Part shown: piece after piece, positions 56,941 through 64,000 of the stretch
Layout of the letters: each line of letters opens with the position of its first letter
How positions within the stretch are numbered: the stretch's first letter is position 1
Source of the DNA: a virus
IMG/VR virus record: IMGVR_UViG_3300020048_000026
Location: 1-64,000 of that record
Strand: one strand, 5' to 3'
DNA: 64,000 nt
Translations under genes and position numbers: made by a program
Notes under the pieces: generated by a model
The model's database searches: none
What the model was told of the DNA's origin: nothing
Seen by the model: only the letters and a program-made list of their open reading frames with translations

Positions 56941-56944
56941 CTTG

Positions 56945-57017
56945 CCCTAAGTGTAGGACTTGAACCTACGACCAACTATTTTAGAGATAGCTGCTCTACC
57001 AACTGAGCTAACAAAGG
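56945..57017 (-). tRNA. tRNA with CUA anticodon (amber suppressor), copy 1
   Basis: CCTTTGT TA GCTC AGTTGGTA GAGC A GCTAT CTCTAAA ATAGT TGGTC GTAGG TTCAAGT CCTAC ACTTAGG G; two U-U mismatches in the acceptor stem. Confidence 0.85.
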
Positions 57018-57023
57018 ATTTTG

Positions 57024-57096
57024 AGATCCAGGTGGGGATCGAACCCACGACCAACTATTTTAGAGATAGCTTCTCTACCAACTGAGATACAAGATC
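57024..57096 (-). tRNA. tRNA with CUA anticodon (amber suppressor), copy 2
   Basis: GATCTTG TA TCTC AGTTGGTA GAGA A GCTAT CTCTAAA ATAGT TGGTC GTGGG TTCGATC CCCAC CTGGATC T; one U-U mismatch in the acceptor stem. Confidence 0.88.
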
Positions 57097-63507: not shown

Positions 63508-63598
63508 TGGCGGAGAGTGTAGGATTCGAACCTACGGGACCCTTACGAGTCCTACAGTTTTCAAGACTGTCGCGATAGACCAACTCTGCCAACTCTCC
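63508..63598 (-). tRNA. tRNA-Ser(UGA)
   Basis: GGAGAGT/ACTCTCC-G-CCA acceptor, loop CTTGAAA, long variable arm, TTCGAAT. Confidence 0.95.
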
Positions 63599-63631: not shown

Positions 63632-64000
63632 TTAAATTAATATTAACCTATCTACACCAATCGCAAACCCAATTCCTCCATCATAACTACCACCACCACA
63701 AATTTGTTTCTGCGCACCCAATTTATCACAAGATATTTCAAATCCTTTTCCATCCTTATAGTAATCTAACCCCCTCTTCACATCTGTATTTATATCAAAA
63801 TCTGGTGTTACTAATTCAATTATTTTACTAGATATTTCTATAAGTTCATCTAAATAGTCCTTATTTGGATTCAAAATTTCAACTCCAAATTGTGTAAATT
63901 CCCTATATCTTCCTGCTTGTGGTGATTCACCTCTAAAACATTCTCCAATGTAAAATAATTTTACGTTTTTTTGATATTTTAATTTTTCCTTCGCTATTAA
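63632..64000 (-). CDS. HisRS-like class II synthetase catalytic core, 5' end outside the window, with no anticodon-binding domain
   Basis: Frame is open to the window end: motif 2 FRGESPQAGRYREFTQFGVE, RGLDYY, GGGSYD, motif 3 GFAIGVDRL, then stop. Confidence 0.85.
   Translation of the reverse strand, partial: LIAKEKLKYQKNVKLFYIGECFRGESPQAGRYREFTQFGVEILNPNKDYLDELIEISSKIIELVTPDFDINTDVKRGLDYYKDGKGFEISCDKLGAQKQICGGGSYDGGIGFAIGVDRLILI

Follow-up and report, generated by a model that had tools for sequence, protein, structure and literature searches.

A gene at the end of the 64,000-nucleotide stretch of viral DNA analysed here (the window) encodes the catalytic domain of a histidyl-tRNA synthetase (HisRS) that lacks the insertion domain, the loop preceding motif 3 and the C-terminal domain. 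From the architecture, residue conservation, predicted fold, family size and gene context of this 209-residue protein (P0001), which is called mini-HisRS together with its relatives, we infer that it may activate histidine, charge tRNA, form a dimer and benefit the phage; it is probably an active, minimal, homodimeric HisRS that charges tRNA-His through the acceptor end only (G-1:C73 and CCA). Automated annotation already labels members of the family "histidyl-tRNA synthetase", and no account of a half-size HisRS family turned up in literature searches that included the text of the papers on Lak and huge phages. Under HisRS, a review of synthetase paralogues from 2022 names HisZ alone (PMC9437257).

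The window covers positions 1-64,000 of a virus record (G000:C1) that is 154,853 bp long and has a GC content of 26.6%. CheckV estimated the completeness of this parent record at 22%, so that the whole genome would measure roughly 0.6-0.7 Mb, and the carrier of the gene is a huge gut-type phage. The minus-strand ORF runs off the window end, and the initial annotation, which was made from the window, had correctly placed the N terminus outside and had proposed that the full gene be recovered and its structure predicted. In the parent record the frame is complete and intact (209 codons; Table 1), and it yielded the HisRS-like model described below. Motif 2, RGLDYY, GGGxYD and motif 3 had been said to be packed into about 105 residues, and the count from motif 2 to the C terminus is indeed 101. 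The ORF also ends close to motif 3 as had been claimed, although only three residues (ILI), and not four, follow the motif. Since the stop codon is TAA, the C terminus would be the same even with TAG as a sense codon, and lengthening of P0001 by TAG read-through was ruled out.

Table 1. Positions of the mini-HisRS gene, its motifs and tRNA genes of the same region (window numbering unless a record is named)
Feature	Position	Strand	Evidence or remarks
mini-HisRS gene (P0001), complete	G000:C1 63632-64261	(-)	
mini-HisRS gene, 3' part (residues 88-209 and TAA; 122 codons)	63632..64000	(-)	Pfam tRNA-synt_His, AF2 model, Foldseek; rest of gene, to 64261, outside window
Class II motif 2 with loop, F109-E128, FRGESPQAGRYREFTQFGVE	63878..63937	(-)	sequence; 46-member alignment; alignment to 1KMM
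HisA loop RGLDYY, R163-Y168	63758..63775	(-)	sequence, family alignment, 1KMM alignment
HisB loop GGGSYD, G189-D194	63680..63697	(-)	sequence, family alignment, 1KMM alignment
Class II motif 3 GFAIGVDRL, G198-L206	63644..63670	(-)	sequence, family alignment, 1KMM alignment
Stop codon TAA of mini-HisRS gene	63632..63634	(-)	read from sequence
tRNA-Ser(UGA), 3'-most of tRNA array	63508..63598	(-)	33 nt downstream of mini-HisRS stop, same strand
tRNA(GUG), 16-nt variable arm, C73, U at -1	G000:C1 65322-65409 (= L001:3423-3510)	(-)	Infernal 40.8 bits; missed by ARAGORN
Second tRNA-Phe(GAA)	G000:C1 65064-65137 (= L001:3165-3238)	(-)	Infernal 53.4 bits; missed by ARAGORN
Two tandem tRNA(CUA) genes	56944-57017, 57023-57096	(-)	identical anticodon arm, different acceptor stems

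A Pfam search with P0001 detected tRNA-synt_His (PF13393) at E 6e-25 and 88.5 bits, above the cut-off of 25, and did not detect HGTP_anticodon (PF03129). The NCBIfam hisS equivalog model TIGR00442 gave 167.9 bits, which is under its cut-off of 286.75; scores were also below the cut-off with the HisZ model TIGR00443 (106.8 against 271.65 bits) and with the PylRS catalytic-domain model TIGR02367 (PylS_Cterm; 35.3 against 178.15 bits), and PHROGs returned weak matches only, to families of unknown function. When HMMER was run against solved structures, bacterial HisRS was the top match (E about 1e-25). In the alignment with E. coli HisRS (1KMM), residues 17-142 of P0001 correspond to residues 17-146 and residues 145-208 to residues 241-314. 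The insertion domain of ~95 residues between motif 2 and HisA is absent, with residues 142-145 bridging E. coli residues 146-241, and its place in the P0001 model is taken by one helix and one short strand only. Also absent are the ~10-residue loop before motif 3 and everything past E. coli residue ~315, that is, the whole C-terminal anticodon-binding domain. Such a reduced HisRS architecture is far beyond chance. The Pfam result, the 1KMM alignment and the conserved homologues of ~200-230 residues described below uphold the earlier proposal of a naturally minimal HisRS-type enzyme without an anticodon-reading domain. Judged from its sequence, mini-HisRS is clearly a HisRS by descent and active site, and it lacks two architectural features of that family and scores below its curated cut-off.

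A split gene, with the anticodon-binding domain in a separate ORF, was ruled out by the distribution of PF03129. The domain was absent from the parent record and from two 98%-complete megaphages carrying mini-HisRS, and in two other mini-HisRS-bearing relatives it was found solely inside tRNA-synt_2b synthetases of 368-408 residues. These compact class II synthetases (L089, L090 and L091, in megaphage records G001 and G004) occur besides mini-HisRS and consist of a tRNA-synt_2b core and HGTP_anticodon, with no further domains. The parent record contains no second or full-length copy of HisRS.

The active site was examined in an alignment of 46 mini-HisRS members (35-77% identity). Y104, R110, R118, F122, Q124, G126, E128, R163, Y168, G191, G198, G202 and R205 are invariant, and E81, T83, Q115, R120, Y167 and Y193 are at least 90% conserved. 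In the 1KMM alignment, invariant residues map to E. coli R113, R121, Q127, E131, R259, Y264 and R311, and those conserved to at least 90% map to E83, T85, Q118, R123, Y263 and Y288; R163 is the counterpart of the catalytic Arg259. The class II signature is found in all three motifs, with P45 of motif 1 at least 90% conserved and R110 of motif 2 and R205 of motif 3 invariant, and the histidine-specific features are found as well, namely the HisA and HisB loops and the E/T and Q/E residues of the pocket. Going by these alignments, the conserved set is that of the ATP pocket, the histidine pocket and the motif-2 loop. In the complex of T. thermophilus HisRS with tRNA, the equivalents of E112, R118 and R120 touch A76, C74 and the acceptor stem, and the contacts made by the insertion domain are unconserved salt bridges, with the R197A and K209A substitutions retaining half or all of the activity (PMC4357726). 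One residue counts against charging through G-1:C73: at the position of E. coli R116, which is among the arginines implicated in G-1 recognition, P0001 has Ser, whereas most members of the family have Arg, as does E. coli. A minority of the mini-HisRS clusters have degenerate motifs. P0138, P0147, P0151, P0154, P0162, P0202, P0244 and P0259 represent separate lineages in which motif-2, HisA or motif-3 residues are lost; these may be pseudo-enzymes derived from the active form, in which catalysis was perhaps lost.

The AF2 model of P0001 had a pLDDT of 89.9 and a pTM of 0.87, and the best PDB folds in a Foldseek search were E. coli HisRS with His-AMP or ATP (TMq 0.85, E 7e-19), followed by PylRS catalytic domains at TMq about 0.7. 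A homodimer model scored 0.86, and none of three controls exceeded 0.00. Of 30 proteins whose structures were solved as pairs, 20 attain the mark applied to this score, as does 1 of 23 whose structures were solved as single chains. The homodimer runs agreed in at least 98% of contacts, the partner pLDDT was at least 86, and the interface is the canonical motif-1 face. Based on these models, P0001 may form the canonical homodimer, although the pass perhaps reflects mere likeness to HisRS dimers, since such dimers have already been solved. Mini-HisRS thus resembles bacterial HisS (class IIa; E. coli 1KMM, 1KMN and 2EL9, T. thermophilus 4RDX) in motifs 1-3, HisA, HisB, every residue that binds ATP or histidine, the greater part of the motif-2 loop, the overall fold and the dimer predicted at the motif-1 face. 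The two differ in length (about 420 residues in HisS), in the domains that mini-HisRS is missing, in the score with TIGR00442 and in their position on separate branches. The PylRS catalytic domain (for example 8IFJ and 6EZD) is also a compact, anticodon-blind class II core; its length is similar, nothing is inserted between its motifs 2 and 3, and it aligns end to end with P0001 at E about 5e-7. However, it has another amino-acid pocket and no HisA or HisB loops, and by sequence comparison P0001 is far nearer to HisRS, whose matches are better by 20 orders of magnitude.

A search for proteins of similar length gave 3292 matches of 114-366 residues. The best 120 of these are all 208-236 residues long and 70-77% identical, and are encoded on contigs of up to 656 kb and 640 kb. 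Among 50%-identity representatives, about 45 further clusters of 190-260 residues matched end to end with 34-62% identity, whereas full-length HisRS (400-430 residues) ranked after the mini clusters and aligned in two pieces. Mini and full-length HisRS (42 and 32 sequences) were placed in a maximum-likelihood tree, which was obtained by a quick search, is unrooted and samples the full-length enzymes; a single branch with an SH-aLRT of 99 separates the two groups. This topology fits one ancient origin of mini-HisRS rather than a series of truncations of host genes. The family, large and old, is abundant in gut, soil and freshwater viromes. Each of five megaphage records, four of them 97-100% complete, has exactly one HisRS-like frame (213-237 residues). 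The GenBank phage records with mini-HisRS are those of two uncultured phages (635-642 kb) and of Phosso, a cultured Sinorhizobium phage of 469 kb, whose homologue of 196 residues is annotated "histidyl-tRNA synthetase" and is 47% identical. Given this distribution, the possibility named in the initial annotation, that the homologues are full length and the present copy decayed, turned out not to apply; the homologues are conserved proteins of ~200-230 residues.

Longer relatives include P0123, P0207 (a RhuM fusion or a chimeric call) and others with unannotated N-terminal extensions, and no tRNA-binding or carrier domain was found in them. P0123 is a metagenomic protein of 564 residues, 58% identical, in which mini-HisRS is broken by a class-1 intein with a LAGLIDADG homing endonuclease domain. 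The intein starts with Cys and ends with His-Asn followed by Thr, and it is placed exactly between Y82 and T83 of the histidine-binding motif LAPEY|TAVVQ. Inteins typically sit in constrained functional sites. The insertion point in P0123 is of the kind at which inteins persist in functionally constrained genes, and it counts in favour of an active enzyme.

The mini-HisRS gene lies inside a same-strand array of 12 tRNAs, ten of which were detected by ARAGORN and two more by Infernal. A tRNA-Lys ends 30 nt upstream of the ATG, and a canonical tRNA-His(GUG) with an encoded G-1 opposite C73 and an 8-bp acceptor stem is located 980 nt upstream of the gene. The variable arm of tRNA-His is normally short. 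The additional tRNA(GUG) with a long variable arm listed in Table 1 is located 1.3 kb past the window end, immediately upstream of the canonical tRNA-His, and long-variable-arm tRNA(GUG) genes with G-1 and C73 are present near mini-HisRS at L038 and L048. At 80 viral mini-HisRS loci, tRNA-His was the most frequent of the tRNAs within 6 kb, at 26 copies; 44 of the loci had no tRNA within that distance. After de-replication of the loci at 85% identity, which left 25 tRNA-bearing clusters, tRNA-His was within 6 kb in 14, tRNA-Arg in 13, tRNA-Lys in 11 and tRNA-Trp in 10. The link between mini-HisRS and tRNA-His proximity is modest by this measure and is suggestive only; a BLAST search of whole complete megaphages with a tRNA-His query mostly matched other tRNAs. 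No Thg1, as a source of G-1, was found in the parent record, which is a partial genome.

Phosso tells more than these counts do: its mini-HisRS gene lies 276 nt after a G-1:C73 tRNA-His, and the host of this phage belongs to the Rhizobiales. Rhizobiales have a tRNA-His without G-1 and a divergent HisRS that follows a different rule; C. crescentus HisRS, the tested member of the divergent type, did not charge E. coli tRNA (PMC3064791). Because its hosts use this other pair, the mini-HisRS and tRNA-His of Phosso look self-sufficient, an argument that comes from a 47%-identical relative and not from the present phage.

These data are best explained if mini-HisRS forms His-AMP in its complete HisRS active site, and if the motif-2 loop then recognises the acceptor end of tRNA-His alone (G-1:C73 and CCA) before histidine is transferred. 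Neither the insertion domain nor the anticodon-binding domain would be needed for charging. The gene would be co-transcribed with the phage tRNAs and freed from the transcript by tRNA processing, and the phage would thereby have its own supply of His-tRNA-His. Engineered HisRS cores bear on the feasibility of such a scheme, as those without the insertion domain activate histidine (PMC3060492) and are reported to acylate tRNA-His (PMC11602164). The E. coli HisRS urzymes of 119-145 residues, which demonstrate that the concept is workable, resemble mini-HisRS in being cores without insertion and anticodon-binding domains. They are, however, designed proteins without the HisA and HisB loops that bind histidine weakly (PMC3060492), whereas mini-HisRS is natural, evolved and conserved and keeps both loops and the dimer interface. 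Against the proposed scheme, loss of both tRNA-gripping domains should cost affinity.

P0001 contains no histidine. The same was true of 119 of 120 Lak-type homologues, the sole exception having its His in an N-terminal extension. In the Lak-type alignment of 210 columns, none of 377 minor residue states is His, and N, Q and D, with which His is often exchanged, occur 21-29 times each. Histidine makes up 1.41% of the phage background, and just 4.3% of ORFs of at least 150 residues are without it. The wider mini-HisRS family is undepleted (1.25 His per 100 residues), and the Phosso-type members are likewise His-free. This composition points to selection in the Lak-type clade for an enzyme that could be translated without His-tRNA-His, which makes sense if the job of mini-HisRS is to make His-tRNA-His; the Lak-type enzyme could continue to be synthesised during a shortage of charged tRNA-His. 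A bolder version of this reading is possible, and we hold it tentatively: mini-HisRS would be a starvation-proof, anticodon-blind module that is made after His-tRNA-His has collapsed and recharges any tRNA with a HisRS-type acceptor end. The collapse might follow, for example, host shut-off, the stringent response or a tRNA-directed defence. Equally tentatively, the substrates would include the long-variable-arm tRNA(GUG), which the full-length host enzyme perhaps handles poorly. If this version were true, the phages would have a natural, portable, host-independent HisRS/tRNA-His system, and mini-HisRS would be the smallest class II synthetase in nature to have retained tRNA charging.

The initial annotation had also allowed for ligation of an amino acid to a substrate other than tRNA. 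Such a ligase would adenylate histidine and hand it to a protein, possibly a carrier protein, to a small molecule or to a base of a nucleic acid; AsnA, EpmA and the SerRS-like amino acid:carrier-protein ligases would be its parallels. Class II cores that stand alone, with no domain for tRNA binding, often have roles of this kind (PMC9437257), and the viral loci with no tRNA within 6 kb also favour this reading. Bacterial copies of mini-HisRS are found within tRNA arrays in Thalassospira and Pararhizobium, and as singletons with no tRNA neighbours and unrelated neighbour genes in Pseudomonas, Chromobacterium and Azospirillum chromosomes, which suggests that not every family member need be a tRNA ligase. 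In the Pseudomonas syringae group (L093, L094 and L108), a 192-residue mini-HisRS gene is divergent from that of a 439-residue TauD-family dioxygenase and lies near a Bro-N gene; the dioxygenase has an N-terminal extension of ~175 residues. The dioxygenase neighbour is another point in favour of a non-tRNA ligase, but it is confined to close Pseudomonas strains and other bacterial copies have unrelated neighbours; a conserved operon partner in bacteria was ruled out on this basis. The SerRS-like ligases are, like mini-HisRS, truncated class II homologues minus the tRNA-binding part; they are encoded beside carrier-protein genes and acylate phosphopantetheine, whereas mini-HisRS is flanked by tRNA-Lys and tRNA-Ser. 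In the present phage, where the nearest ORFs are small, no carrier-protein or biosynthetic gene was recognised adjoining it. In addition, the loop residues E112, Q115, R118 and R120, which contact C74, A76 and the acceptor stem, are conserved family-wide, as would not be expected if tRNA were no longer the acceptor. Nothing in the present phage points to a non-tRNA acceptor, and we consider such a ligase rather unlikely for P0001.

A non-catalytic or regulatory mimic of HisRS is unlikely as well. Such a protein might regulate in the manner of HisZ, sense uncharged tRNA-His or serve as its decoy, or pair with host HisRS via the shared motif-1 interface and alter it. HisZ and the HisRS-like domain of Gcn2 are HisRS cores turned regulators (PMC9437257; PMC11363354); the predicted dimer face of P0001 is canonical, so that mixed dimers with host HisRS are conceivable, and the lineages with lost motif residues would suit this reading. 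On the other hand, P0001 and most of the family retain every ATP- and histidine-binding residue. HisZ, the regulatory subunit of ATP phosphoribosyltransferase, is also a HisRS paralogue without the anticodon-binding domain; in contrast to mini-HisRS, it keeps the insertion domain, works with HisG and is reported to lack adenylation activity (PMC9437257), and its model matched P0001 far below the cut-off, as noted above. HisG (PF01634) was absent from the parent record and from four 97-100% complete megaphages with mini-HisRS, whereas the control genomes were all positive. A HisZ/HisG system was thus ruled out, and HisZ-like regulation is unlikely given the intact catalytic residues.

The initial annotation had suggested that the enzyme could charge unusual tRNAs such as the CUA pair. 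In this reading mini-HisRS would act on the two tRNA(CUA) suppressors encoded 6.5 kb away, or on another non-His tRNA, and thereby aid TAG recoding. An enzyme without an anticodon-binding domain cannot reject the CUA anticodon, and E. coli HisRS charges a tRNA-His(CUA) suppressor (PMC3875453). The acceptor stem of one of the two phage tRNAs has a U-U mismatch and U73, and that of the other has two U-U mismatches and G73; both have U at -1, and the G-1:C73 identity element is missing from both, whereas the histidine pocket of the enzyme is intact. Lak phages are reported to read TAG as Gln (PMC8346664); the parent record is 87% coding in the standard code, with TAG as sense adding less than 1%, and the family is found in phages and bacteria without sign of TAG recoding. 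For these reasons service to the CUA pair was not borne out and is highly improbable. Decay of a captured full-length hisS gene, which the half-normal length and the score below the hisS equivalog cut-off might suggest, was ruled out by the intact frame with its TAA, the hundreds of same-length homologues (34-77% identity) with catalytic residues kept, the single gene per genome in four near-complete megaphages, the single deep clade and the confident model.

The preferred reading, a minimal HisRS acting on the acceptor end of tRNA-His, has consequences beyond the present phage. If active, mini-HisRS would show that a class II synthetase found in nature can charge tRNA with ~200 residues and without either of the domains usually thought to grip tRNA. 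It would also be a natural counterpart to the designed HisRS urzymes for work on the origin of translation; to date, HisRS urzymes have been obtained by design or taken from a single, doubtful database entry. For genetic-code engineering it would offer a very small anticodon-blind enzyme, which should accept any tRNA with G-1:C73 whatever its anticodon. The family is directly testable, because the cultured phage Phosso carries a member. As for the phages, an active mini-HisRS would mean that megaphages themselves secure histidine charging, and the His-free Lak-type clade hints that this provision is meant specifically for times at which charged tRNA-His is limiting.
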